NCBI GenBank assembly: GCA_964460075.1
Contig: CAYWPC010000010.1
Coordinates: 3,102 to 67,101, forward strand
Reading direction: 5' to 3'
DNA: 64,000 bases
From: an uncultured Acidimicrobiaceae bacterium
GTDB lineage: Bacteria > Actinomycetota > Acidimicrobiia > Spongiisociales > UBA5794
Part shown: piece after piece, positions 2,027 to 54,370 of the stretch
Numbering within the stretch: position 1 is the stretch's first letter
Layout of the letters: each line of letters opens with the position of its first letter
Notes under the pieces: model-generated
Told to the model about the DNA's origin: nothing
What the model saw: the letters and a program-made list of their open reading frames with translations, nothing else
Databases searched by the model: none
Made by a program: the position numbers and the translations under genes

Positions 2027-3244
2027 ATGGCTTCCATAAACCTCGAAGACGTCGGAAAGATCTATCCAGATGGCACCCGTGCCGTAGGCCAGGTGAACCT
2101 GACGATCCGAGAGGGTGAGTTCCTGGTACTTGTCGGGCCGTCCGGATGTGGGAAGTCGACCTTGCTCCGCATGATCGCAGGTCTAGAGGAGATCACAGAG
2201 GGCAAGCTCAGCATCGGCGACAAGGTCGTCAACGACGTTCCGCCGAAAGACCGTGACATTGCCATGGTGTTCCAGAATTATGCCCTGTATCCGCATATGA
2301 CCGTCAGGGACAACATGGCGTTCGGTCTCAAGCTGCGAAAGATGCCGAAGAAGGAGATCGAGGAGCGAGTCAGGGAAGCTGCCGAGATCCTGGAGATCAC
2401 CGACTACCTCGAGCGTAAACCGAAGGCACTCTCTGGAGGGCAACGCCAGCGTGTTGCAATGGGGCGCGCCATTGTTCGGGAGCCGAAGGCCTTCCTCATG
2501 GATGAGCCGCTGTCGAACCTCGATGCCAAGCTTCGTGTCCAGATGCGTGCTTCGCTCGGCAGGCTCCATCAGCGACTCGGCACGACGACCGTGTATGTGA
2601 CCCACGACCAGGTCGAGGCGATGACGCTCGGCCACCGTGTGGCTGTGATGCGCCCGGTGTCAGGGAAGCGACCGTACAACTTGCAGCAGGTAGCTGCGCC
2701 GACAGAGTTGTTCAATCACCCGGTGAACCTGTTCGTTGCAGGCTTCATTGGGAGCCCCGCGATGAACATGATGTACGGAACGGTAAGAAAGGAAGGCGAG
2801 CGCTACAGCCTTACCTTCGCAGGGCACACCATCTCGGTTGATCAGGTGGCGGTCGATGCGCATCCCGGTATCGATGACTATCTCGGCAAGGAGATCGTTG
2901 TAGGAATTCGACCTGGAGCCTTCGAGGACGCCAGGGTCGATGGAGCCGCTCCCGGCCGTACGATCCAGGTGACGACGGATGTCAACGAGCTGCTCGGTTC
3001 CGAGTCGTACGTGCACTTCGAACTCGATGCAAAGCCTGTGATCACACCTGACATCGAGGAGCTGCTCGCGGATTCTGGAACCGATGCAGCGTCGCTCGGC
3101 GCCACGACGAGATGCACAGCACGCGTGAACCCGGATGTTCCTGTGCCGGATGGATCCGACGTCGATCTCGTCATCGACACCGCAAAGCTGCATTTCTTCG
3201 ACATTGACAGCGGCGACAAGATCGGTGTCGCGGCGAACCGCTAG
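2027..3244 (+). CDS. msiK: Sugar ABC transporter ATP-binding subunit (MsiK/UgpC family)
   Basis: Start MASINLEDVGK after a GGAGGA RBS; Walker A GPSGCGKS, signature LSGGQRQR, Walker B FLMDEP, C-terminal TOBE-like region. Confidence 0.9.
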   Translation: MASINLEDVGKIYPDGTRAVGQVNLTIREGEFLVLVGPSGCGKSTLLRMIAGLEEITEGKLSIGDKVVNDVPPKDRDIAMVFQNYALYPHMTVRDNMAFGLKLRKMPKKEIEERVREAAEILEITDYLERKPKALSGGQRQRVAMGRAIVREPKAFLMDEPLSNLDAKLRVQMRASLGRLHQRLGTTTVYVTHDQVEAMTLGHRVAVMRPVSGKRPYNLQQVAAPTELFNHPVNLFVAGFIGSPAMNMMYGTVRKEGERYSLTFAGHTISVDQVAVDAHPGIDDYLGKEIVVGIRPGAFEDARVDGAAPGRTIQVTTDVNELLGSESYVHFELDAKPVITPDIEELLADSGTDAASLGATTRCTARVNPDVPVPDGSDVDLVIDTAKLHFFDIDSGDKIGVAANR

Positions 3245-4350
3245 ACCGCCTCGACAACGATCCCGACGGTTTCGAGCTCTGGAAGCAGTTCGGATCCGAC
3301 AACGGCCTCACTCATGGTGCGTACGCCGGGCCTGTGCACCGCTCCATTCGCTATCAGGTCGGCGAGGGCTGTGGCTGGGAAGGCAGTCGTCCGAGCGAGA
3401 GCAGAGAAGTCGCCGCGTTGCGTGTCCTCGATTTGGACGGTGGTCGTGACACCGTTCTGGCGTCGCCACACACGGACGAGGACGAGGTCAGGCGCGCCAC
3501 TAGGAAGGCTTCGGCTCAGTGAGTCCAGGAGGACAGCGCGCGGGGCGACTTCGGTTGCACTTACTCCACGTGCCATCTCGTCGAACAGGCCGAGTTCCAG
3601 CATGGCTCTGAACGTCTGCCCATGGCCAGGGAACCGCAGCGTCTTGTACTCAAGATCTGTGACACGCCCCTGGTGGGTCGTGCACATGGTGGATGTGCCA
3701 CCAGCGGTCGAGAATGCCTCGAGCGGCCCCCAGCGATCCCAGGCAACGTCCTCAAGGCGTGTGAGTGGCTCGACTGTGGTGTACATACCGTTCTCGATGA
3801 CCTCACACGGCTCTGCGTACTCGTTGATGAGTCCCGCGGGGCTGAACGCGAGCTGATACCCCAGAGCGCCCACAGGTATCTGAGGGAGCGCTCCGACGCG
3901 GAGTTGGATGCTCTCGATCGGGCCCTCGTCGGCAGACCGTATGAGGTCCTCACCGAGCACGTTCGCAAGGCCAGGTGCAAGTCCACAATCTGGGACGATC
4001 ATTACCCCAGCAGCAAACGCATCGTCGTGAAGGCGCTTCTGTTCGGCTACAACGGTCGGGTTGCCACCAAAATCCAGGTAGTGCGTCTCGGTCGCTACGG
4101 CTGCCGAGGCGACGCCGACACCGTATCGGTATGGAACTGCGCTCACGACGACCTCGCACGTTTCGAGCAGGTGCCTCACTGCTTGCTCGTCTGCCACATC
4201 GATCGTTACGGGTCGTGCCCCGTAGGCGTGGGCAACGCGTCGGGATGCCTCGATGTCGGCATCTGCGACGATCACGTCGTGGCCCCGCCGCTCGAGGTCC
4301 CACACTGCCGCGGATCCGACGATCCCCGCGCCGAGTACCAGTGTTGTCAT
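3241..4350 (-). CDS. Saccharopine dehydrogenase / lysine 6-dehydrogenase family oxidoreductase
   Basis: LGAGIVG Rossmann motif; DCGLAPGLANV and EAFSTAGGTST-YKTLRFPGH family motifs. Confidence 0.85.
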   Translation of the reverse strand: MTTLVLGAGIVGSAAVWDLERRGHDVIVADADIEASRRVAHAYGARPVTIDVADEQAVRHLLETCEVVVSAVPYRYGVGVASAAVATETHYLDFGGNPTVVAEQKRLHDDAFAAGVMIVPDCGLAPGLANVLGEDLIRSADEGPIESIQLRVGALPQIPVGALGYQLAFSPAGLINEYAEPCEVIENGMYTTVEPLTRLEDVAWDRWGPLEAFSTAGGTSTMCTTHQGRVTDLEYKTLRFPGHGQTFRAMLELGLFDEMARGVSATEVAPRAVLLDSLSRSLPSGAPDLVLVRVWRRQNGVTTTVQIEDTQRGDFSALARTTAFPATALADLIANGAVHRPGVRTMSEAVVGSELLPELETVGIVVEAV

Positions 4351-33229: not shown

Positions 33230-34819
33230 TCAGGCATCGAGGATCTCGTAGGCAGGAAGGGTCAGGAACTCGGGGAACTCGTCAGAGAGCGCGACCTGCT
33301 CGAAGAGTGCCCTTGCTTCGTCGAAGCGAGATGCGTCATAGACCGCGTGGCCAAGCTCGGCGCGAACACGGTCGGTCTCTTCGTCTGCGATCTTGCGGAT
33401 GAGCTCGGGGGTGATCCGTGTGCCGTTCTCGGTCGACGAGGCAGAGTGCACCCACTGCCAGATCTGGGACCGAGAGATCTCAGCGGTCGCTGCGTCCTCC
33501 ATGAGGTTGTAGATCCCCGCCGCTCCGACGCCAGAGAGCCACGATGCGATGTAGCGGATCGCGATGTCGACGTTCTGCCTGACTCCGCCTTCCGTGATCG
33601 ATCCCCCTTGCACCGTGAAGTCGGTCAGATCTTCGACGGTGACTGCCACGTCATCGCGTTGCTTGGACAGTTGATTCGGGGCATCACCGAGAACGTCGTC
33701 GAAGATGCGGGTCACGAGCGGCACGAGATCGGGGTGTGCGACCCACGTGCCATCGCAGCCGTCGCCTGCCTCTCTCTCCTTGTCTTGCGTGACCTTGGCG
33801 AACGCGACTCGGTTGACCTCGTCGTTGCTCCTCGAAGGAATGAAGGCTGCCATTCCGCCCATTGCATGTGCGCCTCGCTTGTGGCACGTCTTGACTAGGA
33901 GCTCCGTGTATGCCCGCATGAACGGAACGGTCATAGCAATCTGTGCCCTGTCTGGCAGCGCTGGCACCCCAGCGGACCGGAACTTCTTTATGACGGAGAA
34001 GATGTAATCCCATCGACCGGCGTTGAGGCCACCGCAATGGTCGCGCAGTTCGTAAAGGATCTCGTCCATCTCGAATGCCGCGGGAATCGTTTCGATGAGA
34101 ACCGTTGCCCTCACGGTGCCGACGTCGATGCCGAGCACGTCCTGAGCATGTAGGAATACGTCGTTCCAGAGCCTCGCCTCGCGATGGCTCTCAAGCTTTG
34201 GAAGGTAGAAATACGGCCCAGAGCCTCGATCGATGAGAGCCGAGGCGTTGTGGAAGAAGTAGAGCCCGAAATCGAACAACGACGCCGAAACGGGAATGTC
34301 ATCGATCGTCACGTGGTGTTCGTCGAGATGCCAGCCTCTGGGCCTGACCATCAGCGTCGCGGTATCCGTGTCGAGTGCGTATTGCTTGCCCTGATCGTTG
34401 GTGAAGTCGATGCGCCCGCGGATTGCGTCGAACAGGTTGATCTGACCCTCGACCATGTTCGACCACGTTGGCGAGTTCGAGTCTTCGAAATCGGCCATAA
34501 ACACCTTCGCTCCGCAGTTCAACGCGTTGATGATCATCTTGCGATCGGTCGGGCCCGTGATCTCGCAGCGACGGTCGACCAGGTCGAGGGGTGCGGGCCG
34601 AACGGACCACTCGGCGGATCGCACGTTCGCTGTTGAGGTGAGAAACCCCAGGGGTGCGCCATCGTCGAACTGGATCTGACGCTCCCGTCTGATATCGAGG
34701 AGATGGAGTCGCGTTTCGTTGAATCGTGTGTGGAGATCCGCGACGAACTCGAGCGCGTCGTCAGCCAGCATGTCCGAGAAGTGGAGGCCCATCGGTCCCT
34801 CTATCGTGATGTCGTGCAT
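33230..34819 (-). CDS. aceB: Malate synthase A
   Basis: [36 protein letters not shown] and [14 protein letters not shown] motifs. Confidence 0.97.
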
Positions 34820-43026: not shown

Positions 43027-46000
43027 TCAGGTCACGACGGACTTGCCGGCCTCGCAATGGTGGAGGAAGTCGCAGAACCGACATGCGGGTGACGGCGAGG
43101 GGTCGAACGGCCCGGACGTCGCTGCCGCAACAAGGTCTGTGATGTTTGACTGTGCAGCTTGGAGCCAGTCATCGCTGACGACTCTCGTCACTTCCTCACA
43201 CGTCCCGTCACCGAAATAAGCGAACGTGACCTCGACGTTCTGCGGGATGGTGCCGGCTACGGTGCCGTTTGCGACTGCGAGAGCGTACGCCTCAAGCTGA
43301 ACGTTCTTCGCCGCGTCGTCACGCCGTTTGCCTGACTTGTAATCGACAATCTCCCATGTGCCGTCGTCACCGTCGTAGATGGCGTCGATCTTGCCCCTAA
43401 TGGTTCCTGGTTCGAGTCCGAGGACGAACGGTATTTCCACGAAGCGGGCCTGCATGCGGTGGAAGCGAGACCGAGCAAAGGCCTCCCAAGGGTCGCTTCG
43501 TGTCGGGCGCACAGTGGTGGCACCTTTGATGTGTACGGTGTCGAAGGCTCCGGTAGACGGATCGTCGAGGGCCACCACGCCGAGGTTGTGGAGCTCGACT
43601 TGTCGATGGAATCGGGTGCCGAGCGCAGCGGAGACCTGTGGGCGTCTGGGCAATCGGTCGTGCTGGATCCACTTGAACTTGAGGGGACACTCTGCGAGTG
43701 CGACCAGGTTCGTCACCGAAGTCGAGAACACGGTTCTGGTCGCTTCAGCCTTTGGAAGTTGGAGGTTGCCGATCTCCATGATGAGCTGTTCTGTTCGGTT
43801 GTGCACAGTGTCGACCATATCCGGGAAGTGATCCGTGATCCAGTGTGGATCACGGATTCGCTCACGCAGGGCACTCGTCCAGCCTCCTGGAAACAAAGGA
43901 TCAGGAGGGTCTGCAGGCTCCTCATGGGATCTCGGTGCCGGTTTGGGCCCGGCATCGTCCGTCCAGACGAGTGCGGTCGCCCCCGGCGTGTCGTTGGCTA
44001 TCTCAAGGAGCGGTGAAGGCGTACGAGGCCTCGTCACATCTCGGTCCCAAGCGTGGCCCGTCATGATGAGGTCGTGTTTTGCTCTTGTCACCGCGACATA
44101 CGCCAACCGCCACTCTGCAACGTTGTGGCGGGCACTGAGAATCTCTCTGCACTCTTGTGGCGACGCCGCACCTTGCACCGCTGCAAACGACGACCTGTCG
44201 AGACGGAGTTCGTACGGCAAGACAAGGGCCGATCTGCCCGGGTCGTCATAGGTTCGCACACCCGCTGGGAACGTGCCCTTGGCTAGGGACGGCAGGAACA
44301 CGATCGGCCACTCGAGGCCCTTCGCGGCATGAGCCGTGATCAGATGAACGACGTTTGACGACGTGTCCGCGGCCGCATCCAGTTCCTCGCCGGGTGATGC
44401 ATCATCGAGAGCGTCGACGTAGCGCAGAAACGCAGTGAGTGTCGGGGTGCCGTCGAGTGGTCTCCAGCGGCGGGTGAGCGAGGCGAACCGGCCGATATTG
44501 GCCCGTGCCGTTGCTGCGTCCGATGGCGACTGGGCTGCAACCTCGTCCCAGAATCCGAGGTTGGTGATCGTCATCTCGAGGATGCGGGGAACAGGGAGCA
44601 TCTGCGAGCGGGTGTACATATCTATGTGCAGCACTCCGAAGCGTTCGAGCCTGGCTCTCCCTTCGCTCGAGAGGCCTTCGATGTCGTCGAGATGCTCGAG
44701 CGCCACAGCCAAGTTGCGCGTTTCGACGTGTCCACACCATCTCCTCAGTCTCGAGATGTCGCGCATGCCGACCCGGAACATGCCTCCCAGGAGTATCCGT
44801 AGGAGTGACGGCTCGTCCGCTGGGTTTGCGAGGATTCGTAGCCAGGCGAGGAGATCTGCAACCTCAGGAACCGTGAGCAGGCCACCCATGGAACTGACGG
44901 CGTAGGGAATGTCTGCGTTTCTGAGGGCGTCCGCGATGGCGGGGATCGCTGATCTCTTGCGGCACAGGATCGCAACGTCGCACCATGACGAGCCGGATTC
45001 GCGACGGCGGTGTATCTGGTCGGCAATCCATTCGGCCTCATCATCATCTGTGGCGAACCACCCGACGCTGAGGCTTCCGTCTGCGGCGCCCTCACACGGA
45101 GTCAAAGGTTTGGAGGCTTCGATACGGGGGAGGTGACCCTGGATCTTGTTCGCCAACGCAAGGATGACCGTGTCAGAACGCCGGTTGATGCTCAGGGGGA
45201 GCGTCTCGGTCGGTAGACCATCTCTTCGAGGGAAGTGCACAGGGAAGTTGGCGAAGTTGTCAAGCGATGCGCCCCGCCAGTCGTAGATCGTCTGATCGGC
45301 ATCTCCGACGGCGGTCACAGGCTTGCCATCCCCGAATACGGAGGTGAGCAGCCGGCGCTGAGCCGGATCGGTGTCCTGGTATTCGTCGAGGAGAACCGTG
45401 TCGTATCGATCCGAGATCCCTGAGGCGACGTCTGGGAAGCCCTCGACGATCTCCACAGCGAGCCTGATGAGGTCGCCGTACTCGAGAAAGTGCAGGTCAC
45501 GTTTCGCCGAGGCGTAGCGGTCGGCAGCATGTGTCAGGGAGATGCGTGCCTTCCACACGTCATCCAAGGTAGCGGGTGCTGCATCTAGCACATCTTGCGC
45601 GGTGAGCAGGTTCGCGGTCATCGAGTCGGCAACGGTGAGTAACTCCTCCCTCCGTCTTGACAGGGATGAGAGATCGAGGTCCGTCGAGTCGAGATCTCGA
45701 AGGACTCGGTATGCAAGTTCCGATCGGTGACCTTGGTCCATCAGGGCCGATGCGGGCTCGTAACCAACGAAGGCTCCGAACTCGTCGAGGATCGACGACG
45801 CGAAACCGTGATACGTCGTCACCTCGACTTCTCTGTCATCGTCCCTATCACCGATAGCTTCCCGTAGCCGGGTCCGTAACTCGTCTGCGGCCTTGTTGGT
45901 GAAGGTGATCCCCAGAGCTCTCGTAGGGTCTCCCCCGCTATGTACCACTGCAGCGAAGCGCTCAACGATCGTTGTGGTCTTTCCGGTGCCTGCGCCCGCG

Positions 46001-46071
46001 ACGACTCGCAGCGGCACGGGCGGGTAGTCGATGATTGCCTGTTGTTCTGCGGTAGGTACGAACTTGGTCAT
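43027..46071 (-). CDS. adnB: UvrD-like helicase-nuclease, AdnB subunit
   Basis: AGAGTGKT, DEYQD, VGDADQTIYDWRG, TAHAAKGLEWP and LAYVAVTRAK motifs; C-terminal nuclease GKIDA-IVDYKSG-QLEAYA with C...CRFCDFLHHC. Confidence 0.88.
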   Translation of the reverse strand: MTKFVPTAEQQAIIDYPPVPLRVVAGAGTGKTTTIVERFAAVVHSGGDPTRALGITFTNKAADELRTRLREAIGDRDDDREVEVTTYHGFASSILDEFGAFVGYEPASALMDQGHRSELAYRVLRDLDSTDLDLSSLSRRREELLTVADSMTANLLTAQDVLDAAPATLDDVWKARISLTHAADRYASAKRDLHFLEYGDLIRLAVEIVEGFPDVASGISDRYDTVLLDEYQDTDPAQRRLLTSVFGDGKPVTAVGDADQTIYDWRGASLDNFANFPVHFPRRDGLPTETLPLSINRRSDTVILALANKIQGHLPRIEASKPLTPCEGAADGSLSVGWFATDDDEAEWIADQIHRRRESGSSWCDVAILCRKRSAIPAIADALRNADIPYAVSSMGGLLTVPEVADLLAWLRILANPADEPSLLRILLGGMFRVGMRDISRLRRWCGHVETRNLAVALEHLDDIEGLSSEGRARLERFGVLHIDMYTRSQMLPVPRILEMTITNLGFWDEVAAQSPSDAATARANIGRFASLTRRWRPLDGTPTLTAFLRYVDALDDASPGEELDAAADTSSNVVHLITAHAAKGLEWPIVFLPSLAKGTFPAGVRTYDDPGRSALVLPYELRLDRSSFAAVQGAASPQECREILSARHNVAEWRLAYVAVTRAKHDLIMTGHAWDRDVTRPRTPSPLLEIANDTPGATALVWTDDAGPKPAPRSHEEPADPPDPLFPGGWTSALRERIRDPHWITDHFPDMVDTVHNRTEQLIMEIGNLQLPKAEATRTVFSTSVTNLVALAECPLKFKWIQHDRLPRRPQVSAALGTRFHRQVELHNLGVVALDDPSTGAFDTVHIKGATTVRPTRSDPWEAFARSRFHRMQARFVEIPFVLGLEPGTIRGKIDAIYDGDDGTWEIVDYKSGKRRDDAAKNVQLEAYALAVANGTVAGTIPQNVEVTFAYFGDGTCEEVTRVVSDDWLQAAQSNITDLVAAATSGPFDPSPSPACRFCDFLHHCEAGKSVVT

Positions 46072-49055
46072 TGGGCGAAGGCCTCTCTTCCTTGAGGCTG
46101 GGCCGGGCAGACGAGGGCGACATCGCATCGGTCGCAATGTTTGCCGACGACCGGATCGAACCGCTCAGCGGCGATGGCCTTGGTGATGGCCTCGAGTTCC
46201 GCGGTCACTCCATCGAGTTGCGAGGGCTCAAGTGACCGGGTGACGATGCTGGTCTTGTTCGGGTCGATTCGCGGATACCAGAACTCGGCTCCGACGATCG
46301 ATCCCTTGGAGACAAGGGACGCATCATCTCTGGCGGCCAGAACGTAGTAGCCGAGCTGGAGTGACACCGCGGCGTCCGCAACTCTCACCGCTGATCCCGA
46401 CGTCTTGTAGTCGACGACGAAGAGCTCCTCGCCTCTTTGCTCGATACGGTCGGCCCGGCCCGTCCAGGGAACTCCTGCAACCGTATACGGCAGCTCTCTC
46501 TCGAAGGCCACGGGAACCCCAGAGGTTGGCCAGCGCTCGTAGAGGTTGTCCAGCGTAGTTTCGGCCCTCTCCCTCCACGATCTTCCCACAGCGTCGTCGT
46601 CGAAGCCCGCATCAGCCCACAGATCGTCGAGACACGCCTGGGCCTCTCTCCGTGTGGAACGCTGTCTGTCGTCCTCGACGGCTTGACGCTCGGCAACCTC
46701 GATGACCTTGTGGATGAGCGTGCCGAACTTCATGTGGTCACTGGTTTCGCTCCGCGAAAGCAGGTGCCTGCCTATGGCGTACTGCCGTGGGCAGGTGGCA
46801 TACGCTGTCGCCTGGCTCGGTGATAGCCGAAGCTGGTCAGGGACGATGTGGCGATGCGGACCTGATTCGAGTGCACCGTACCGGGTCATCGGATCCGATA
46901 AGCCGACGTGCGTGCCTCCAGCGAGCACGTCGATCGCCGCTAGCCGTTGGATGGCTGGTGCCTCAGGATCCTTGGCGGTCAGACGAAGCGCGGCTTCGAA
47001 CGAGCGAGGAGTCAGCGGCTCTGTGTTTCGATGTGGTGGTGTGATGGATGCCACGAGGGGAAGGAATCGGCTGGGCTGAGGTCCGTTTGGGACGGCGTCG
47101 TTGCTGGTCGCGGTCCATACGACGCGAGACGTTGCTCTGGTCATAGCGGTGTAGGCAAGCCGGCGTTCCTCGTCGAGCCGGAATGCAACGTAGTCGCTGG
47201 TCCTCGCGGGAAGGTGCGGGTTGAGGAGCCGCACGCCGAGGAGCGAGTCGCGCGATCGAAGATCCGGCAGGTCGCCCTCGACGGCGTTCGCGATGTAGAC
47301 GACATCGAAATCGGTGCCCTTGGCTCTGTGCAGTGTTGCGATCGTGACGCCGCCATCGTCAGCGGATCGGAAGGAGAACAGCGGATCCGCTTCGAAATCG
47401 GTTCCTGCCACGAGTGTTCCGTGGTCGGTAAGGGTCGCCCCAGGCGATCGTTCGACGAGCCGCGTGAGTACCTGGTCGAATGCAGCCCACGCACGCCGAT
47501 CGGCCAGGTGATCCGCGTCGAGCGCTACGGGAACGAGTTGCGGGAGCGTGGACCACACATGCCAGAGCCCGACGGGAGCCGGCACATCGCAGGCCCACGA
47601 AGCGTCATCGATGAGCGTCGCGAGGCGTTGGCCCTGAGGAACCCTCGATGCGATGAGTGCGGACCACGTAGCTCCATCTGCGGCCAAGCGGGCGAGGTGA
47701 TTAACGGTTCCATACGGCACGGCGAAGAACGGGCTCAGGAGAACTCGTTCGATCGCGAGGCCGGCACCTTCGTCCGTTCCGGTGGCGAGCACGAGGTCGT
47801 GGACGAGGCGGACGACGGGCTCGTCTGTAAGCCTGCTCTCTGTGAAGGAGTGGGGGAGAGAGCGACGCTCGAGCGCCGTTGCCAGCTCGCTGCCAAAGTC
47901 AGACTTCGTTCTTGTGAAAACGGCGACGCGCTCGAGCGGCACACCGTCGAGGAGGTGGACACGCTCGATGTCGGATGCGATCCAGTCGGCTTCGTCGTGG
48001 ATCGTCGTAAACGTGTGGGCGGCAACGCTTCCACCCGTCCGTGTGCTGTGCACCCTCCCCGCTCCTCCTGGCAGTTCACGCGCTGTGACACGGACGGCCG
48101 CATCGAGAATCTCGGAAGGAACCCGGAAGGATGTGGTGAGCACGATGCGCTCGGCCTCGGTTCCGAGGCGTTCCTCTGTGTCTTGGGGGAACGTGAACAC
48201 GTTGTTGATGTTCGTGCCGCGGAATGAATATATCGACTGATAGGGGTCCGCTGCGACCGTGAGGCTCGATCCCGGTGCGGCGAGCCGGAAGAGCATCTCT
48301 GCGTGAGCGTGAGACGAGTCCTGGTACTCATCAGCCACGATGAGGTCGTAAGGATCTGCGATCTCGGGTATCGCGCCGAGCGCGGCGACGGCCTCGGTGA
48401 GAATCCTTCCGTAGTCGGTTCGGTGTTGTGCAGTGAGGTATGCGTTGTACCGGTCGAAGAATCCGGCCATCGCGATGAGCCTCGGGTCGCTCATCGTCGT
48501 GAGATCTTCTGGGGTGATGAGCTGCTCGTGGCATCGCAGGATGAAGTCGGTGACCTCACTGGCCATCATGGGCGAGTCGAGGAGCGTTCGGTGGCCCGGG
48601 GGCCATGCAGACGGTGTCTCGGATGCGAGGAGGTCTGCCACGACCTTCTCTTGCTCCGCTGCGGTGAGCACGCTCGGCGTCCTCTCCCAGCCGAGGCTTG
48701 CAGCGTTCGCTTCGACGATGCGCATCGCGAGACTGTGATATGTGGCGACGTGGATGCGTTGTGCGAAGGGACCGATCATGTCGACGAGGCGTCGTCGAAG
48801 ATCGTTTACACCTGATCGCGAGAAGCCGAGAGCGAGGATCGCCTCTGGTGCGATGTGAGCATCGGCGATGGCAGCGTTCACGCGTGCAACGAGGAAGTGT
48901 GTCTTGCCCGTTCCCGGACCGCCAACAACGATCTGTGGCCGATCTGGTGGTGCGACAGAGCCACTCCAGTCTTGCGGTCCGAGTCTCGTCTCGATCAGCG
49001 GCATCGCACGAGCCTCTACGGTGACGGGGTCGAGTGGCGGGTCATCATCCGGCAT
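46068..49055 (-). CDS. adnA: UvrD-like helicase-nuclease, AdnA subunit
   Basis: GGPGTGKT, ADEYQD, TLHRAKG and EERRLAYTAMTRA motifs; C-terminal GRADRI-VVDYKTSG-QLGYY with C...CDRCDVALVC. Confidence 0.85.
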   Translation of the reverse strand: MPDDDPPLDPVTVEARAMPLIETRLGPQDWSGSVAPPDRPQIVVGGPGTGKTHFLVARVNAAIADAHIAPEAILALGFSRSGVNDLRRRLVDMIGPFAQRIHVATYHSLAMRIVEANAASLGWERTPSVLTAAEQEKVVADLLASETPSAWPPGHRTLLDSPMMASEVTDFILRCHEQLITPEDLTTMSDPRLIAMAGFFDRYNAYLTAQHRTDYGRILTEAVAALGAIPEIADPYDLIVADEYQDSSHAHAEMLFRLAAPGSSLTVAADPYQSIYSFRGTNINNVFTFPQDTEERLGTEAERIVLTTSFRVPSEILDAAVRVTARELPGGAGRVHSTRTGGSVAAHTFTTIHDEADWIASDIERVHLLDGVPLERVAVFTRTKSDFGSELATALERRSLPHSFTESRLTDEPVVRLVHDLVLATGTDEGAGLAIERVLLSPFFAVPYGTVNHLARLAADGATWSALIASRVPQGQRLATLIDDASWACDVPAPVGLWHVWSTLPQLVPVALDADHLADRRAWAAFDQVLTRLVERSPGATLTDHGTLVAGTDFEADPLFSFRSADDGGVTIATLHRAKGTDFDVVYIANAVEGDLPDLRSRDSLLGVRLLNPHLPARTSDYVAFRLDEERRLAYTAMTRATSRVVWTATSNDAVPNGPQPSRFLPLVASITPPHRNTEPLTPRSFEAALRLTAKDPEAPAIQRLAAIDVLAGGTHVGLSDPMTRYGALESGPHRHIVPDQLRLSPSQATAYATCPRQYAIGRHLLSRSETSDHMKFGTLIHKVIEVAERQAVEDDRQRSTRREAQACLDDLWADAGFDDDAVGRSWRERAETTLDNLYERWPTSGVPVAFERELPYTVAGVPWTGRADRIEQRGEELFVVDYKTSGSAVRVADAAVSLQLGYYVLAARDDASLVSKGSIVGAEFWYPRIDPNKTSIVTRSLEPSQLDGVTAELEAITKAIAAERFDPVVGKHCDRCDVALVCPAQPQGREAFAQ

Positions 49056-49875
49056 CGGCGGTCTGCCATGCAGGACACAGCGTTGCCTTGAAGTCGCACC
49101 AGTCGCACAACGCAGACGTGGTAGGTGGCCACGTATCGGTCTCAATCGCATGCTCGATTGCCGTCCACAGCGCCTCGAGTTGACGTTCCATGGCATCGAG
49201 CTGTGCGTCGGTGATATCCATGGTGTACTCGGTTGGCCCGTTGAGATACAGGAGTCGAACGCGGTCGGGCGTGACGCCCTTGGTGATTCGGATCAGCAAC
49301 GCGTAGATTTTCAGGGCGAAGAAGGCCTTGTGTGCGAATCGTTGCGGCGGGGCTCTCCCCGTCTTGTAGTCGGTGATCACCAGCACTTCTCGCACGGAGC
49401 CGTCGGTATCGACCTCGGTGATGTGCTCCATTCGGTCGAGGATTCCCCTGATCGTCATGTCGTTCACCGGAACCGTGAGGTCCATCTCGAGCTCGAGCGG
49501 TTCGAATGACGACGGATCCTCCACCGTGAAGTATGAGGCGAGAAGCTCAAGAGACTCAATTCCCCATTGGCGTTCGTCGTCGAGAGACGTGAACAGATCC
49601 GGGTATTCATCAGTTTTGAGCTCGGTCCATGCGGATCGAAAGAGGTCGTAGAGCTGCTCGGGTGTTCGCTGCGCAGCGGGGAGTTGGAACAGACGTTCGA
49701 GGGCGAGATGTGCCGTTGTGCCTCGAGCCTGGTGTACGGTCGGCTCGGTTGGGATCTTGTCGATGGATTTGAACTTGTACAGCTGAGGGCACGTCTTGAA
49801 ATCGCTGGCCCTGCTCGGAGACAGACTCGTCAGCGTGTGCCCTGTCGTGGGGGTGTCGGTGGGTTCGGTAGCCAT
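49045..49875 (-). CDS. RecB-family/Cas4-like exonuclease (Rv2119-like)
   Basis: LSPSRASDFKTCP, RGTTAHLALE, RGILDRM, TDYKTG and CDWCDFKATLC motifs; overlaps the adnA start. Confidence 0.88.
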   Translation of the reverse strand: MATEPTDTPTTGHTLTSLSPSRASDFKTCPQLYKFKSIDKIPTEPTVHQARGTTAHLALERLFQLPAAQRTPEQLYDLFRSAWTELKTDEYPDLFTSLDDERQWGIESLELLASYFTVEDPSSFEPLELEMDLTVPVNDMTIRGILDRMEHITEVDTDGSVREVLVITDYKTGRAPPQRFAHKAFFALKIYALLIRITKGVTPDRVRLLYLNGPTEYTMDITDAQLDAMERQLEALWTAIEHAIETDTWPPTTSALCDWCDFKATLCPAWQTADAG

Positions 49876-49881
49876 GCTCGC

Positions 49882-49903
49882 AGCGTACTTGCCTGCTGTG
49901 ACA
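49882..49903 (-). promoter_or_regulatory. PafBC/RecA-NDp-type DNA-damage promoter (TGTCAC-N10-TACGCT), leaderless
   Basis: Minus strand reads TGTCAC agcaggcaag TACGCT gcgagc ATG, matching the spacing of the TGTCRG-N10-TANNNT consensus (5/6 in the upstream element). Confidence 0.65.
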
Positions 49904-49977
49904 GAAATGGGTTCAGCGAGTCGTCTCGTGGGCGTGTTGCTCGAAGGGATGCAGACCGCACGAGTGAGGCTGCTGTT

Positions 49978-50051
49978 CGCGAAAAACGTGTGTGGGTCGC
50001 GAAAAGCACATGACGTTGTGAGCTACACAGGTGACGGCAGTTCCGTAGTTT
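49978..50051 (+). promoter_or_regulatory. Candidate ncRNA-A promoter: tandem CGCGAAAA boxes plus -10 TAGTTT
   Basis: Boxes at 49978-49985 and 49998-50005; -10 at 50046-50051, the same offset as in unit B. Confidence 0.6.
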
Positions 50052-50058
50052 CCCAAAT

Positions 50059-50470
50059 ATCCAGAGACGTAAGTCGATGGAGTGGCACAGGGCAAGCTCC
50101 TCACCCGAGCAGGCCTAACCGGGCGACCGGGTGCCTTTGCAGCGAAGGGCGACCGGAGCTGCAGCCTGCCGCTTCGGCGGTAGGCACAAGGTCTCGAGCA
50201 GGAGCCCAGCCTTCGAGAGGCCACCGGAGGTCCGCCGTGAGGTTGGGTCTCCACCCGGAGGCGACCTCGGTCGCCGCCGTAGCGTTTCTGCGAACCTCGG
50301 TTCGTATGAGCGGTTCCGTCCAGTGATGGAGACCTCGGTCCTCGTCGAGGACGGAGCACCCCGGGAGGAGTCGGGAGACTGGCGAGACCCGGATTGGAGT
50401 GACTGTGTCACTTCGCTTGAGAACCCCGAGAGGGCGAGGCCTCGGCCGAGCTTCCTCGGGGTTTCTCTTA
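50059..50470 (+). ncRNA. Putative novel structured ncRNA A (about 410 nt)
   Basis: Dense hairpins with UUCG, GNRA and four c(CUCG)g loops; a GAA/GGA-GNRA module; terminal hairpin homologous to ncRNA B; no credible CDS; convergent with the downstream gene. Confidence 0.65.
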
Positions 50471-50476
50471 TGTTGG
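50419..50476 (+). terminator. Intrinsic terminator-like hairpin ending ncRNA A
   Basis: GAGAACCCCGAG...CTCGGGGTTTCTC followed by TTATGTT. Confidence 0.7.
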
Positions 50477-50532
50477 CGGTGCTTGCCTCAGCGCTCCTCT
50501 GCTCCCCAATCTTGTCCACTTCCGGCGCGGCG

Positions 50533-51165
50533 TCAGCACGTCGGCTCGATTGCGATGAAGTCGACGACCCCCGAGTCACCCGGCGCGTCGAGTTTGCCGA
50601 CCATGTGGGGATCAGAGGAGCCGTCGACGACGAACGTCGCGGAGGCGATGTCGTAGGCATCCGTGACGCTGACCCGAGCGCCGTAGGAGTCGACGAGGTC
50701 ACGCCTTGTAGATCCGAGGCCTACGCCTTCTCGAGTGCGAAGGTTGGAATTCCTGAGGTCCACGGAGTTGGCGGTCACCGGATCGAAACCGTAGGACCAG
50801 CTCGCAAGGCGCTCACCGTCGACGTCCGCAATGAAGACGAGAGCGAGGGAGCCCCAAGACACGACACGGGCAGCACCGCTTGGGCATTCGGGGGCAGCAA
50901 CGGTGCTTGCGTCCTCACGTGAGTCGGCGTCCCACCCGCCGATTGCTGCAGCTATGCCAGCGATCACGGTCTCGGCATCGTCGCCGATGGCGAACGGCCC
51001 GATAGCGTCGCTTGTCAGCGTCAGATCGGTGGAAGGGGTCGGTCCGGAGGGGAGACTCGTCGTTGTCGACGGCTCGGCTGTGACGACCGGTTGTGAGATC
51101 GAACAGGCGCCTGCGAGCAGTGCAAGAGCCGTTGCGAGACGAAAAATAGGCGGAATCGAACGCAT
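50533..51165 (-). CDS. Hypothetical lipoprotein
   Basis: Lipobox LAGAC, Thr/Pro linker, one Cys pair; leaderless TACCGT-N6-ATG promoter. Confidence 0.75.
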   Translation of the reverse strand: MRSIPPIFRLATALALLAGACSISQPVVTAEPSTTTSLPSGPTPSTDLTLTSDAIGPFAIGDDAETVIAGIAAAIGGWDADSREDASTVAAPECPSGAARVVSWGSLALVFIADVDGERLASWSYGFDPVTANSVDLRNSNLRTREGVGLGSTRRDLVDSYGARVSVTDAYDIASATFVVDGSSDPHMVGKLDAPGDSGVVDFIAIEPTC

Positions 51166-51186: not shown

Positions 51187-51260
51187 CGCGAAAACTCGTC
51201 GTGGCTCGCGAAAAGCAATCAGCGTTCCAGGTTGCGAAGCCTCTCTGCATGTGCCAAATT
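51187..51260 (+). promoter_or_regulatory. Candidate ncRNA-B promoter: tandem CGCGAAAA boxes, -35 TTGCGA, N17, extended -10 TGn-CAAATT
   Basis: Boxes at 51187-51194 and 51207-51214; TTGCGA at 51232-51237; CAAATT at 51255-51260. Confidence 0.62.
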
Positions 51261-51267
51261 AATGCTT

Positions 51268-51580
51268 ACCGCAAAGGGGCAACCCGGAGCGGACCGCAAT
51301 CGGGGAGACCCGGGAGCGGGTGCCGAAGGGAAACCGGAGGCATCCGGTGTAAAAACCGGTGACCGGTCTGGAAACGGGCCGGGTCCTTGAGAGGGCACCC
51401 TCGGGTGTTCGGGGCGTCCGCCCCAGTCCTCGGCTTCGGTCGACGACAATCACAAGGAGGGTGCGAGTCTCGATTCGCATCTGGCTCCGCTTGCGGAGCA
51501 GCGAAACCGAAGGCCGCAAGGTCGGAGGCGACGTAGAGAACACCCCAAGGGGGCTTCGGCTTCCTTGGGGTTTCTCGTTG
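51268..51580 (+). ncRNA. Putative novel structured ncRNA B (about 310 nt)
   Basis: About 13 consecutive hairpins, mostly capped by GNRA/UUCG/CUUG/CUCG loops; four RAW/GGA-GNRA modules; terminal hairpin; the downstream gene has its own leaderless promoter. Confidence 0.75.
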
Positions 51581-51661: not shown

Positions 51662-52279
51662 ATGTCCTGGCCAGATGACGCCCTCAGCGATGACGAAACG
51701 ATCATCACCTCGTTTAGGCCTCATTGGAAGTTGCTGTTCATCCCGTTCGTGTGGTTCGTCGCGATCGTCGTGGTGTTCTCCTTTGCACTTGCGTTGCTCA
51801 CGGACCTGTGGATCGTCTGGTTGGGCATCCTTGTCGCTGCAGACGCATACTTCGTCATTCGGCCTGTCGTCAACTGGTGGTTCACTCGCTACGTGCTCAC
51901 GACGGAGCGGTTGATCACCCGAGTCGGCCTCATCGCACAGTCGGGTGTCGAGATCCCGCTCGAACGGATCACGAACGTCAACTTCTCGCAATCTGTGTTT
52001 GAGCGGTTACTCGGAGCTGGTGATCTACTGATCGAATCTGCCGGAACATCCGGGCAGAGCAAGTTTTCGAACATCCCTCACCCCGATGACTTCCAGACCC
52101 TCTTGTACAAGGTGCGCGAGAAGCGGACCATCGAGCTGAGCGGCATGCAAGACGCGCTCGACACACCCAAGGCAGACGCCGTCGACTCCATTCGCAGGCT
52201 CGCAGAGCTCCTTGAGGAAGGTCTCGTCTCACCAGAGGAGTACGAGATGAAGCGCAAAGAACTGCTCGACGAGATGTAG
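51662..52279 (+). CDS. Membrane protein with bacterial PH (bPH_2) and SHOCT domains
   Basis: RPHW, two TM segments, YVLTTERLITRVG-IPLERITNV, ERLLGAGDLLIESAG, and SHOCT LAELLEEGLVSPEEYEMKRKELL. TATGCT-N6-ATG leaderless start. Confidence 0.88.
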   Translation: MSWPDDALSDDETIITSFRPHWKLLFIPFVWFVAIVVVFSFALALLTDLWIVWLGILVAADAYFVIRPVVNWWFTRYVLTTERLITRVGLIAQSGVEIPLERITNVNFSQSVFERLLGAGDLLIESAGTSGQSKFSNIPHPDDFQTLLYKVREKRTIELSGMQDALDTPKADAVDSIRRLAELLEEGLVSPEEYEMKRKELLDEM

Positions 52280-52311: not shown

Positions 52312-53124
52312 TCAGTCGGCCTGTTTCGGCGGTTCCCGTTCAGCAGGATCCTGCCGGTAGAACTCCCCCAGGACACCGTACAACTCAGGCGTGGCTGCGG
52401 CCATGTCGATGGGACGATCGAAAAAGAACTCGGTGGCGACCGCAAAGAACTCGGCGCGGTTGACCCCGGCGTAGGCGTCGAGGAACGGGTGGCCGCTCAC
52501 GCCCTCCTGCAGCGCCTCGTACTCGCGAGCACAAACTTGTTCCCATCGGCCCCGCAGCACCGTGTCCATTGGAGGCATGCCATCGGCTGCCCCATCAGCC
52601 ATGTCGATCTTGTGAGCAAACTCGTGATATACGACGTTGTGTCCGGTGTCGGGATGTGCCGCGGATCGTTTCGCCGAGTCCCACGCGATCACGACTGGGC
52701 CGTGGAGGGCAGCCTCACCGAGGATCGGGACGATCGTGTCGGTCTCCAAGATGCCGATCTCCGGCACCGAGCGTCTGCCCCTCAACACGACACTGCTCGG
52801 ATACATGATGATCGACGAGACATCTCGGTAGTAGGCATTCTCGAGTCCGAGGATCAGCAGACAGGCAGACGCCGCGACGAGGACCTTGATCTCGACGGAC
52901 TCAGCCAGCTCACTGGCCCACTCGAAGCGCTTCTCGAAGAGGAACACCTTGATGAGGCGCTCGAGGCGGGCCCTGTCATCATCGTCAAGCCATCGCCAGT
53001 GCACCATCTCAGACTCAAGCAGTACCTGCCACTCGGTGGGGAAAGGGGCTTCCATGGCCCTGCGTCGACGTCGCTGCCTTGGTGTTTCGATACGCATGGG
53101 GTCCGTTCGTCGAGCATCGATCAT
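52312..53124 (-). CDS. M90-family (MtfA-like) zinc peptidase
   Basis: GEAALHGPVVIAW, NVVYHEFAHKID and EFFAVATEFFF motifs; start may be 53097. Confidence 0.85.
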   Translation of the reverse strand: MIDARRTDPMRIETPRQRRRRRAMEAPFPTEWQVLLESEMVHWRWLDDDDRARLERLIKVFLFEKRFEWASELAESVEIKVLVAASACLLILGLENAYYRDVSSIIMYPSSVVLRGRRSVPEIGILETDTIVPILGEAALHGPVVIAWDSAKRSAAHPDTGHNVVYHEFAHKIDMADGAADGMPPMDTVLRGRWEQVCAREYEALQEGVSGHPFLDAYAGVNRAEFFAVATEFFFDRPIDMAAATPELYGVLGEFYRQDPAEREPPKQAD

Positions 53125-53146
53125 AGATTGCCGCAAGCGGTCACTG

Positions 53147-54370
53147 TCACGCTTCGTCTTGAACCCGTGCTCTATCGAAACGGGCGACGACCTCGATGTG
53201 GTATGTCTGGGGGAACAGGTCGACCGGCGTTGCCTCGACGAACTCGTAGCCGTGGGACGCGAGCATGCGAGCGTCGCGGGCGAGCGAAGCCGGGTCGCAC
53301 GAGACGTAGGCGATACGCCGAGGCATGGCAGCCGTGACGGCTTCGACGCCCCGCTCACCGAGCCCCTTGCGAGGTGGATCGACGACCGCAACGTCCCAGT
53401 ACTCGTTGAGTTGCTCGATGTCCTTCGTGAAGGAGCCGGTGATGATGTGATGGTCGATACCTGCGCCTGAGAGGTTTTGTCGTGCGAAGTCGACGGCTCT
53501 GCCCGACGCTTCGATGCCGATGACCCGTGCGGCTTTGGCGCCGACGGTTGCACCGAACAACGCAACGCCGCAGTACCCGTCGAGCAGGGTCTCGTGCGGC
53601 TCGATCATCAGCAGATCCCCTACGAGCCCGACGAGTGCCTCAGCCCCATCGGTGTTGTTCTGAAAGAATCCATCTGCTGGTATCGCAAAGTCGACACCGT
53701 CGACGATTTCGGTCAATGTGTCGGTGCCGACGATGGCCTTCGTCGAGCGCCCGTTGCGGTGTGCCACCGACGTTCCCCATTCGGCAACCTGCTCGGGTAT
53801 CTCGCCGTCGACTATCGCGAGGAGGACGCCGGTGCGTGTGCCGGAGCGAAGCGTGAGACGCTCGACGCCTGAGAGGTCGCCCAAGGCAGCGAAGACGGCT
53901 TGGAGCTCTGGCACCATCAGTAGACATTGGCTCAAAGGGACGAGATCATTCGACCGTTCCCGCGAGAGTGCAGGTGTGCCTTCGGCAACCCGAAAGTCCA
54001 TGCGGTTGCGATAGCGGAGGTTCGGACCGACGACGACGGTTTCGTGAACGACAGGGGAGCGGATCTTACCGAGATGTTCGAGTTGGCCAACGACGGTCGA
54101 ACGTTTCCATCGGCGCTGCTCCGACTCATTGGCGAACTGCCACTGGCATCCGCCGCACGCCGAGGCGTGGGGGCACGGTTGGTCTCTGCGCTCTGGTGAC
54201 GGCGCAACGATGTCGACGAGTGCCGTTCTGGCCCACGAGCCCTTGTCCTCGACCACGGTCGCTCTCACAACTTCCCCTGGCATTGCACCTGGGATGAAGT
54301 ACGCCTTTCCGTCGTGACGCGCGACGGCTTCGCCGCCGTGGGCCATGTCGTGTGGGTGGAGTTCCATCAT
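53147..54370 (-). CDS. TRAM-domain RNA m5U methyltransferase (RlmD/TrmA family)
   Basis: TRAM N-terminus, CPHASACGGCQWQ Fe-S motif, FFQNN, DGYCGV, VDPPRKG, YVSCDP and DLFPQTYHIE motifs. Confidence 0.92.
   Translation of the reverse strand: MMELHPHDMAHGGEAVARHDGKAYFIPGAMPGEVVRATVVEDKGSWARTALVDIVAPSPERRDQPCPHASACGGCQWQFANESEQRRWKRSTVVGQLEHLGKIRSPVVHETVVVGPNLRYRNRMDFRVAEGTPALSRERSNDLVPLSQCLLMVPELQAVFAALGDLSGVERLTLRSGTRTGVLLAIVDGEIPEQVAEWGTSVAHRNGRSTKAIVGTDTLTEIVDGVDFAIPADGFFQNNTDGAEALVGLVGDLLMIEPHETLLDGYCGVALFGATVGAKAARVIGIEASGRAVDFARQNLSGAGIDHHIITGSFTKDIEQLNEYWDVAVVDPPRKGLGERGVEAVTAAMPRRIAYVSCDPASLARDARMLASHGYEFVEATPVDLFPQTYHIEVVARFDRARVQDEA

Follow-up and report, generated by a model that had tools for sequence, protein, structure and literature searches.

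RNA A, an element of about 410 nt on the plus strand (50058–50468) of a 64,000-nt stretch of DNA from contig CAYWPC010000010.1 of an uncultured Acidimicrobiaceae bacterium, is with high confidence an independent gene for a structured non-coding RNA. This stretch, which was analyzed at its full length, is called the window below. Together with RNA B, a paralog located downstream, RNA A is a member of an RNA family not described before, which is transcribed and found widely among Acidimicrobiia; the gene and the family can both be regarded as solid. As the best overall explanation of the data we propose, with moderate confidence, a dedicated structured-RNA gene of a new family whose product would act in trans by binding protein.

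Structure and conservation of RNA A

Two minus-strand genes, 657 nt apart, flank the region 50059–50470 (Table 1). In a preliminary description, it had been proposed to encode a structured non-coding RNA of about 410 nt on the plus strand, and folding, terminator and covariation all agree with this proposal. The plus strand folds with -228.8 kcal/mol, corresponding to z = -7.5 relative to dinucleotide-preserving shuffles, whereas the minus strand reached z = -2.8. All hairpins that had been described are present where they had been placed, including AGTC-GGGA-GACT and GCC-GTGA-GGT besides those in Table 1. The proposed borders also fit the signals found, since the -10 region (TAGTTT, 50046–50051) predicts a start near 50058 and the terminator hairpin with its U-run ends at about 50468.

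For the covariation analysis, 23 full-length orthologs of A from metagenome-assembled genomes (MAGs) of Acidimicrobiia were aligned with MAFFT (gapped alignment A4), and a consensus structure was obtained by a vote over the individual minimum-free-energy folds. It comprises 115 pairs in 15 helices. In this structure 87.8% of the alignment cells were paired, a fraction that is inflated because the structure was derived from the same 23 sequences, compared to 33–52% when the 3′ partners were slid by 1–3 columns. Changes on both sides, a count that is less affected by this derivation, occurred in 73 of the 115 pairs compared to 27–37 in the slid controls, and none of 500 shuffles reached the observed values. 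With the same 23 orthologs, RNAalifold predicted 78 pairs, of which 46 showed compensatory changes. A helix joining the 5′ and 3′ ends was not supported in the consensus of the 23 orthologs.

The strand of the RNA was assigned by two observations. In the terminator, two G-U pairs that would give C-A mismatches on the opposite strand are conserved in 21–23 of the 23 sequences, and a covariance model of the 3′ hairpin (R1), built without any window sequence, scored strongly asymmetrically. For A (50410–50469) it reached 67.9 bits on the plus strand (E = 6e-15) and 26.5 bits on the minus strand, and for B the values were 46 bits (E = 2e-9) and 23.2 bits, respectively. Therefore, the plus strand is taken as the RNA strand. 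The open reading frames (ORFs) overlapping A, which had been suspected to be spurious, do appear so: they have no Pfam match, no single reading frame stays open across the A orthologs, and of the 317 internal gaps in the ortholog alignment, 263 have lengths not divisible by three.

A begins with a 5′-terminal GNRA hairpin (P1), followed by a small three-way junction (P2), nine hairpins (P3–P11) and the 3′ hairpin. The P1 loop is GCAA or GAAA in 20 of the 23 orthologs. Within P2, helix P2b (helix 3) is nearly invariant and carries a GAAA loop in 18 of 23 orthologs, and the closing helix GGCAC/GUGCC was seen by eye in one ortholog, L014 (UCGGC/GCCGA). The string GGAGCCCAG (50201–50209) in the loop of P5 is invariant in all 23 A orthologs. 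The loop of P10 is GAAA in 15 of 23, and that of P6 varies between GNRA and YNMG types.

Promoter and terminator of RNA A

An alignment of the promoters of seven orthologs revealed two invariant upstream boxes, a -35 region TTGCGn or TTGACn, a 17-nt spacer and a -10 region TAnnTT. The boxes form a direct repeat (A/T)CGCGAAAA with a distance of 20 bp at about -60/-80, which is present in the window at 49978–50005 and 51187–51214, upstream of A and B respectively, and in the promoters of 180 family members. Within the window, the exact 12-mer TCGCGAAAAGCA is limited to two sites, one ahead of A and one ahead of B. The -35 region of A (CTACAC) is degenerate and aligns with the TTGCGn/TTGACn of relatives. 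Because a simple sigma-70 scan found no promoter at this position, the assignment of the core promoter of A rests on the comparison with relatives. The consensus of the 180 genes is tCGCGAAAa-N12-CGCGAAAAC..AGCGaTCTGG-TTGAC/TTGCG-17 nt-TAnnTT.

In the loci examined, 236 paired boxes were counted and a family hairpin follows 194 of them. Some of the remaining 42 are cut by a contig end, and many have the same -35 and -10 regions and a P1-like hairpin. The paired-box promoter thus appears to be dedicated to this RNA family in these loci, and the paired boxes imply an activator or an UP-like element. As a curiosity, ACGCGAAA is identical to the MCB box of eukaryotes, to which APSES/KilA-N-type domains bind.

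A also has its own intrinsic terminator: a terminator scan found a terminator-like hairpin and a U-run ending the element on the plus strand. The U-run is short (GGGGUUUCUC). A reverse-complement box (TTCGCG) after the terminator was considered as part of a terminal inverted repeat; it is present in only 53 of 257 copies and was dropped.

RNA B and the modular RNA family

The relationship of A to a second element, B, which had been suggested previously, was borne out. Both have the CGCGAAAA box pair with 20 bp distance, internal blocks and a closely similar terminator in common, and a profile built from the A orthologs matches B with E = 4e-13. B starts with a 5′ GNRA hairpin, contains two modules with a GAA/GGA internal loop and a GNRA cap (51273–51288 and 51325–51338) and has a shortened 3′ hairpin CCCCAAGGGGGCUUCGGCUUCCUUGGGG. 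With model R1, no third copy of the 3′ hairpin was found in the window. A weak match at 34638–34668 on the minus strand (17.2 bits, E about 0.02), with no paired boxes upstream, is probably an ordinary terminator-like hairpin.

Eighty syntenic loci were taken from species-representative genomes and searched with nhmmer. About 23 of them contain full-length orthologs of A, and almost every locus has the 3′ hairpin in one or two copies. A scan of metagenome contigs for the hairpin pattern only yielded 120 further loci, most of them beside the nuclease gene or the bPH_2/SHOCT gene that flank the RNA pair in the window, or beside both. The pooled family has at least 180 distinct genes, all with the promoter and a nearly invariant 3′ hairpin ACCCCGAGAGGG...CUCGGGGUU; the 3′ consensus of 180 genes is gaaCCCCgAGaGGGc...gCUcCCUcGGGGUUU. 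The features that define the family were all found in the window, namely paired boxes with -35 and -10 regions (49978–50051), the 3′ hairpin, and the position between the nuclease/AdnAB genes and the bPH_2/SHOCT gene.

Each locus contains two or three paralogs in tandem, and their lengths differ strongly. The proximal box and the hairpin are 106–684 nt apart, which corresponds to RNAs of roughly 95–650 nt with a body of about 45 to about 620 nt. Part of this variation comes from duplication or loss of single hairpins: the P9-type module GGnGCUUCGGCnnC...GGAGAGAnGGGAC is present once more in L020 and L022 and three more times in L019, and the P6 and P8 hairpins are missing in L023, L024 and L026. 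The build of the family is modular: promoter, 5′ hairpin and 3′ domain are fixed, and the middle, which consists of hairpins capped by GNRA or UUCG/CUCG loops, can expand. The family members inspected start with P1, and the GGAG(U)G word of P11 was also found in B and in the 3′ parts of the compact family RNAs inspected.

These compact RNAs of about 155 nt occur on about 15 contigs in other contexts, e.g., beside a TetR-like gene, and have the same paired boxes, P1 hairpin and 3′ hairpin as A. In L114, L120, L121, L128, L196, L200 and L087, no nuclease or bPH_2/SHOCT neighbour is present within the contig. The compact RNA is divergent from a small conserved ORF (about 90–110 aa, MADQDQVTQL...HH...WAEWYA), and in L128 a TetR-like gene is also nearby. 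Three compact RNAs in L152 (3950–4534, minus strand) and two in L113 (483–783, plus strand) are arranged head-to-tail about 260–280 nt apart, each with its own paired-box promoter.

Loops of the hairpin array

On the plus strand of the window, c(CUCG)g hairpins with stems of at least 6 bp occur only in A and B, and the two CUCG loops that had been noted in B (51393–51410 and 51459–51482) are real. The recurrence of this loop on four stems of A had been taken as a sign of a reiterated binding determinant. This idea was ruled out by the ortholog loops and a loop census of the family. At the four CUCG positions of A, the 23 orthologs mostly have UUCG (in 10–15), with CUCG in 1–9 and UACG, UCCG or CUUG in others; for example, the P7 loop is CUCG in 9, UUCG in 10 and different in 4 orthologs, and the P8 loop is UUCG in 13 and CUCG in 3. 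Among 1711 predicted hairpin loops of 180 family members, 733 are GNRA and 637 YNMG loops (451 UUCG, 105 CUCG), together 80%. CUCG fits the YNMG class of stable tetraloops. Based on the orthologs and the census, CUCG is an interchangeable stable cap and not a conserved recognition element.

Family-wide, no 6- or 7-mers other than c(UUCG)g, c(GCAA)g and g(GAAA)c were enriched relative to shuffles. A further candidate for a reiterated determinant was the GAA/GGA internal loop with GNRA cap. It is present in A (50144–50157, within P3) and twice in B, the P3 module having its counterpart at 51325–51338, and 58 occurrences were observed compared to 1.4 expected. Since only 36 of the 180 members contain it, the module is not family-wide and was rejected in this role.

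Transcripts of related loci in metatranscriptomes

No RNA runs with the window's own sequence were found, and expression was therefore examined on relatives, chiefly on the ortholog in L014, using assembled contigs that carry no strand information and indicate depth only roughly. The best A ortholog is about 77% identical to the window. By profile search the L014 ortholog is full-length, although the blastn alignment with the window was limited to its 3′ part (about 82% identity). Sediment, estuary and aquatic samples yielded 18 metatranscriptome runs that contain words of this ortholog. When four runs from four studies were compared with 3 kb of L014, the contigs covered only A (2924–3282) and B (1872–2122), and none of the four runs contained contigs over the nuclease, lipoprotein or bPH_2/SHOCT genes of L014.

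The L014 contigs begin about 12–18 nt inside the predicted 5′ ends and extend to the terminator hairpin, ending within it or immediately ahead of it. Three of the A contig ends (L014 positions 3276, 3277 and 3282) directly adjoin sequencing-adapter sequence. Such ends might be expected of libraries prepared from a molecule with very stable terminal hairpins, or might reflect processing. For the compact member L128, soil metatranscriptomes gave a two- to threefold cover with some cover of the flanks, which weakly supports its expression. Contigs of high depth in runs X19 and X21 (236 in X19) agree with L014 only over the conserved P2b/P3 segment (3204–3240) and diverge beyond it. Other, unsampled family members therefore have a higher contig depth than L014 in the same samples.

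Genomic context

In Acidimicrobiia, A and B lie at a conserved locus between a PD-(D/E)XK nuclease/AdnAB-like operon and a bPH_2/SHOCT gene. The order of the nuclease/AdnAB genes is kept in relatives with 73–87% protein identity. A family RNA is located directly upstream of the bPH_2/SHOCT gene and co-oriented with it in 85 cases, with a median distance of about 60 nt between hairpin and start codon. The closest named homologs of the window's nuclease protein are from Acidimicrobiia MAGs, and the window's own DNA was found in one microbial-mat metagenome only. Seven contigs with Acidimicrobiia-type gene order and RNA (L017, L027, L030, L040, L054, L065 and L074) come from MAGs labelled Armatimonadetes, Acidobacteria or Kiloniellales; these contigs are probably mis-binned or the bins mislabelled.

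No match in Pfam or NCBIfam was obtained for the 210-aa protein encoded between A and B. Its gene is present in many relatives (33–60% identity) and absent from L001, L006, L015, L017, L018 and L021, where A and B are directly in tandem. This pattern suggests that the gene was either inserted into the RNA pair or lost from it. The AdnB-like, AdnA-like and RecB-family nuclease ORFs (43027–49875, minus strand) overlap by 70 and 152 nt as listed, and the real start codons of the two upstream genes of this cluster are probably located further in. The M90 peptidase and TrmA-like ORFs overlap by about 420 nt as listed. Because the Pfam match of the peptidase begins only at residue 164, its true start is probably downstream of the listed TTG.

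Table 1. Features of the window around RNAs A and B, and A orthologs with duplicated hairpins (positions in their own loci).
Feature	Position	Strand	Basis or remark
AdnA/AdnB-type pair, UvrD-helicase + PD-(D/E)XK, ~1040 aa each	43027–49196	-	downstream of nuclease gene
PD-(D/E)XK "RecB-family exonuclease" gene	49045–49875	-	left flank of RNA A
Distal upstream box CGCGAAAA, ~-80 from predicted start	49978–49985	+	invariant in 7 orthologous promoters
Proximal upstream box CGCGAAAA, ~-60, 20 bp from distal box	49998–50005	+	ortholog promoters and family consensus
Core promoter: degenerate -35 CTACAC, 17-nt spacer, -10 TAGTTT (50046–50051)	50023–50051	+	comparison with relatives
RNA A, whole transcript, ~410 nt, ends predicted	50058–50468	+	nhmmer full-length match 50055–50474; fold; covariation
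P1, 5′-terminal hairpin, GUAA (GNRA) loop, purine-rich internal loop	50060–50081	+	helices 1–2, 6/8 pairs compensatory
P2, three-way junction: GGCAC/GUGCC closes P2a (loop CUCACCC) and P2b CCGG-GCGA-CCGG	50084–50135	+	minimum-free-energy fold
Hairpin CCGG-GCGA-CCGG	50119–50130	+	
P3: CUGCAG stem, GAA/GGA 3x3 internal loop, GG-GCGA-CC cap	50138–50163	+	helix 4, 7/9 pairs compensatory
P4: GCCUGCCGC-UUCG-GCGGUAGGC	50164–50185	+	helix 5, 7/9 pairs compensatory
Hairpin GCCTGCCGC-TTCG-GCGGTAGGC	50164–50185	+	
P5: covarying stem, loop AGCCCAG	50190–50222	+	helix 6, 7/11 pairs compensatory, 94.5% paired
P6: hairpin with GUGA loop	50226–50251	+	helices 7–8, weaker, 73–86% paired
P7: GGCGAC-CUCG-GUCGCC with flanking extension	50255–50280	+	helix 9, 7/9 pairs compensatory
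Hairpin GGCGAC-CTCG-GTCGCC	50260–50275	+	
P8: CUGCGAAC-CUCG-GUUCGUA with extension	50284–50311	+	helix 10, 12/12 pairs compensatory
Hairpin GCGAAC-CTCG-GTTCGT	50290–50305	+	
P9: long hairpin GUUCCGUCC...GAC-CUCG-GUC...GGACGGAGC	50313–50357	+	helices 11–12
Stem GTTCCGTCC/GGACGGAGC	50313–50321 / 50349–50357	+	
Hairpin GAC-CTCG-GTC	50331–50340	+	
P10: CCGGG / internal loops / GUCGG-GAGA-CUGGC / CCCGG	50361–50392	+	helix 13, 8/12 pairs compensatory
P11: GGAGUGAC-UGU-GUCACUUC	50396–50414	+	helix 14
3′ hairpin and terminator: AGAACCCCGAGAGGGCGAGGC-CUCG-GCCGAGCUUCCUCGGGGUUUCUC, family signature element	50420–50468	+	terminator scan, covariance model
Hairpin GGC-CTCG-GCC	50438–50447	+	
Gene for 210-aa protein, lipoprotein-like N-terminus	50533–51165	-	between A and B; convergent with A
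B with promoter: boxes 51187–51194 and 51207–51214; -35 TTGCGA 51232–51237; -10 CAAATT 51255–51260	51187–51580	+	
RNA B	~51267–51580	+	fold z = -7.2; 3′ hairpin ACCCCAAGGGGGCUUCGGCUUCCUUGGGGUUU
bPH_2 + SHOCT membrane-protein gene	51662–52279	+	Pfam PF03703, PF09851; 92 nt 3′ of B hairpin
M90 peptidase gene	52312–53565	-	right of bPH_2/SHOCT gene
TrmA-like methyltransferase gene	53147–54370	-	right of M90 peptidase gene
A orthologs with hairpin duplications	L019:63–605, L020:1736–2192, L022:308–765	-	

Comparison with known RNAs

A comparison with Rfam 15 gave no match for A. Within the window as a whole no match was obtained at the gathering score, in the segment 49700–50700 none with E ≤ 10, and at eight orthologous loci none with E ≤ 5, apart from matches to mir-1180, EBV sisRNA, Acido-Lenti-1, sR55 and CcsR1 that were set aside as chance matches. 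As Rfam 15 was negative, recognisable 6S, raiA, OLE, HEARO, ROOL and GOLLD RNAs, among others, are excluded. In the literature on small RNAs (sRNAs) of Acidimicrobiia and on 6S RNA, no description of this family was found.

Two abundant, lineage-specific RNAs have been described in Actinobacteria, Ms1 and CoRP (PMC9130861, PMC11077062). Ms1, known from mycobacteria and Streptomyces, has about 300 nt, folds like 6S RNA with two terminal hairpins in addition, binds the sigma-free RNA polymerase core, is flanked by conserved genes for a HAD-IB hydrolase (phosphoserine phosphatase) and an oxidoreductase, and was reported in 14 orders, Acidimicrobiia not being among them (PMC9130861). CoRP of Corynebacterium has 516 nt, likewise binds the RNA polymerase core and has tRNA genes as flanks (PMC11077062). 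The discoverers of these RNAs proposed one such RNA per species and predicted further unrecognised classes (PMC9130861, PMC11077062). A resembles both in many respects: it comes from Actinomycetota, and Ms1 and CoRP are lineage-specific, abundant, structured, 300–516 nt long, equipped with their own promoter, conserved in position and unrecognisable by sequence outside their lineage, as is the case for A. The nearby M90 peptidase gene first suggested that A might be Ms1, which was rejected on synteny and structure. A is flanked by genes for a PD-(D/E)XK nuclease, a lipoprotein, a bPH_2/SHOCT protein and an M90 peptidase, with no HAD-IB hydrolase, and it has terminal hairpins but no 6S-like rod with a central bubble. 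In contrast to CoRP, no tRNA gene is present in the window and the host belongs to Acidimicrobiia; A is set apart from CoRP by description. Furthermore, the new family differs from both Ms1 and CoRP by its two or three tandem paralogs and its very variable length.

6S RNA is abundant and stable like the new family and forms paralog pairs (6S-1, 6S-2) in some species. Its gene is often located directly upstream of a co-oriented protein gene (ssrS-ygfA), as is B with respect to the bPH_2/SHOCT gene. However, 6S RNA (RF00013), which binds the sigma-A/sigma-70 holoenzyme and templates pRNA, is a rod of about 180–200 nt with a closing stem, a large central bubble and a terminal loop, whereas A has about 410 nt, no Rfam match and neither a closing stem nor a central bubble, its consensus consisting of 15 mostly local helices.

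In design, the Csr/Rsm sponge RNAs (CsrB/CsrC, RsmX/Y/Z) are the nearest analogy. They share with the family the presence of paralogs, a common upstream activating sequence, a variable number of hairpins, a rho-independent terminator and high abundance, the upstream sequence having its counterpart in the paired CGCGAAAA boxes of 180 genes. Unlike the Csr/Rsm RNAs, the family has no reiterated GGA-type motif and its loops are generic GNRA and YNMG loops; CsrA is not known from Actinomycetota. OLE is a large, hairpin-rich ornate RNA directly upstream of the membrane-protein gene oapA, resembling the arrangement of B and the bPH_2/SHOCT gene. It differs by its fixed and conserved architecture, whereas the body of the present family is variable and its Rfam search was negative. 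Finally, raiA RNA (RF03072) is, like A, a large structured non-coding RNA occurring in Acidimicrobiia. The raiA RNAs, found in this class among others, are present in a single copy per genome and are not cis-regulatory (PMC10861870). A had no match to the raiA model, and the two to three tandem paralogs contrast with the single-copy raiA RNA and its fixed core of about 200 nt.

Possible function of the RNA family

We tentatively suggest that A is a long-lived RNA which acts in trans by protein binding via its invariant elements, with the hairpin array as scaffold. This suggestion is based on the organization of A as a unit of its own, the stable hairpins at its ends, the conservation of the terminal modules, the tandem paralogs and the contigs that cover the RNAs without their neighbours. 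Action in trans is also favoured by the convergent orientation of the gene downstream of A and by the compact members in unrelated contexts. In such a mechanism, the terminal hairpins would shield both RNA ends from nucleases. The contact surfaces would be the invariant elements, i.e., the 3′ hairpin throughout the family and the GGAGCCCAG loop in A, and the hairpin array might serve as an expandable scaffold in which the CUCG loops would be structural caps only. The family could represent a new class of abundant regulatory ribonucleoprotein (RNP) RNAs with a cassette design, either associated with RNA polymerase or having the bPH_2/SHOCT protein as partner in an OLE-like membrane RNP, which we consider possible yet somewhat unlikely. 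RNA polymerase is the leading candidate as partner, in which case the family would be the Acidimicrobiia counterpart of Ms1 and CoRP and a functional analogue of 6S RNA with another architecture; this particular partner nevertheless seems rather doubtful.

Several points weigh against a trans-acting, protein-binding RNA. The expression evidence comes from strandless contigs of relatives and not from this organism, the L014 ortholog being matched only in part. The consensus is a string of local hairpins without the closing helix and central bubble of 6S and Ms1 RNA, and a body varying from about 45 to about 620 nt would be odd for a precise structural mimic. Among the 180 members, no reiterated motif was found besides the tetraloops, leaving a CsrB-type multi-site sponge unsupported. 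Moreover, one copy is almost always located about 60 nt upstream of the bPH_2/SHOCT gene, which fits a leader or co-transcription as well.

The family RNA might accordingly be read as a leader or co-transcribed RNA of the bPH_2/SHOCT gene, perhaps processed from the mRNA, with regulated termination at the 3′ hairpin, A being an extra upstream copy. This would resemble riboswitch or attenuator leaders and the 6S-ygfA and OLE-oapA arrangements, and it fits B better than A: B occupies a position like that of a riboswitch in the 5′ untranslated region, 92 nt from the gene, whereas A is followed by a gene on the opposite strand (50533–51165). The 85 co-oriented cases agree with a leader, since the distance from hairpin to start is mostly 27–110 nt and often leaves little room for a separate promoter. 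The linkage persists through an inversion in L079, the short U-run makes read-through plausible, and in the loci without the lipoprotein-like gene, A, B and the bPH_2/SHOCT gene are co-oriented in tandem. Yet in the window and many relatives the lipoprotein gene following A is convergent, A and B are each preceded by a complete promoter, and compact members have no bPH_2/SHOCT gene nearby. In addition, the sequence of the 3′ hairpin is the same with or without a downstream gene, the metatranscriptome contigs lie on A and B and none on the downstream gene, and a body whose length varies roughly tenfold is unlike a fixed, ligand-binding aptamer. On balance, we regard a leader function as improbable.

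A base-pairing sRNA would act on mRNAs via the GGAGCCCAG loop, possibly together with the GGAG words, in a manner similar to the C-rich loops of the actinobacterial 6C RNA, the remainder of A providing stability. Such a role is conceivable for the A subfamily, in which this 9-nt string is invariant and presented in a loop on a covarying stem, and neither within A nor between A and B was a pairing partner for the loop found. However, the loop is limited to the A subfamily and absent from B and most of the 180 genes. A conserved complement was not found in A, B or the window, where complementary sites are not in excess (17 found, 18.8 expected), and about 410 nt with more than 12 hairpins far exceed the need of a seed-bearing sRNA. 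Base-pairing as the function of A is therefore quite improbable.

Two further explanations are effectively excluded. A DNA-level element, i.e., a repeat resembling repetitive extragenic palindromic (REP) sequences or miniature inverted-repeat transposable elements (MITEs), or an array of protein-binding sites, would agree with the palindrome-rich DNA, the several copies per locus and the TTCGCG box after some terminators, but not with the strand asymmetry of folding, G-U pairs and model scores, the compensatory changes that preserve RNA pairs, the fixed orientation of promoter and terminator, the transcripts in metatranscriptomes or a syntenic position across the whole class instead of a dispersed one. 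A protein-coding gene in one of the long open frames at 49796–50326 (+), 49913–50359 (-), 50115–50702 (-) or 50131–50922 (+) is contradicted by the coding analysis described above and by substitutions that track helix pairing, open frames being common in DNA with a GC content of 60–64% (about 60% in the window).

Genetically, Acidimicrobiia are almost unstudied, although they are frequently found in marine sediments, microbial mats and soils. The RNA family described here can be annotated in their genomes from the promoter consensus, the covariance model of the 3′ hairpin and the conserved neighbourhood, and the dedicated paired-box promoter points to a transcription factor. With invariant ends and an array that grows and shrinks by duplication of single hairpins, its modular build is unusual and constitutes a natural experiment on the growth of large RNAs. 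The family is also a candidate for the question raised by Ms1 and CoRP, whether every bacterial lineage has its own abundant RNA polymerase-binding RNA.

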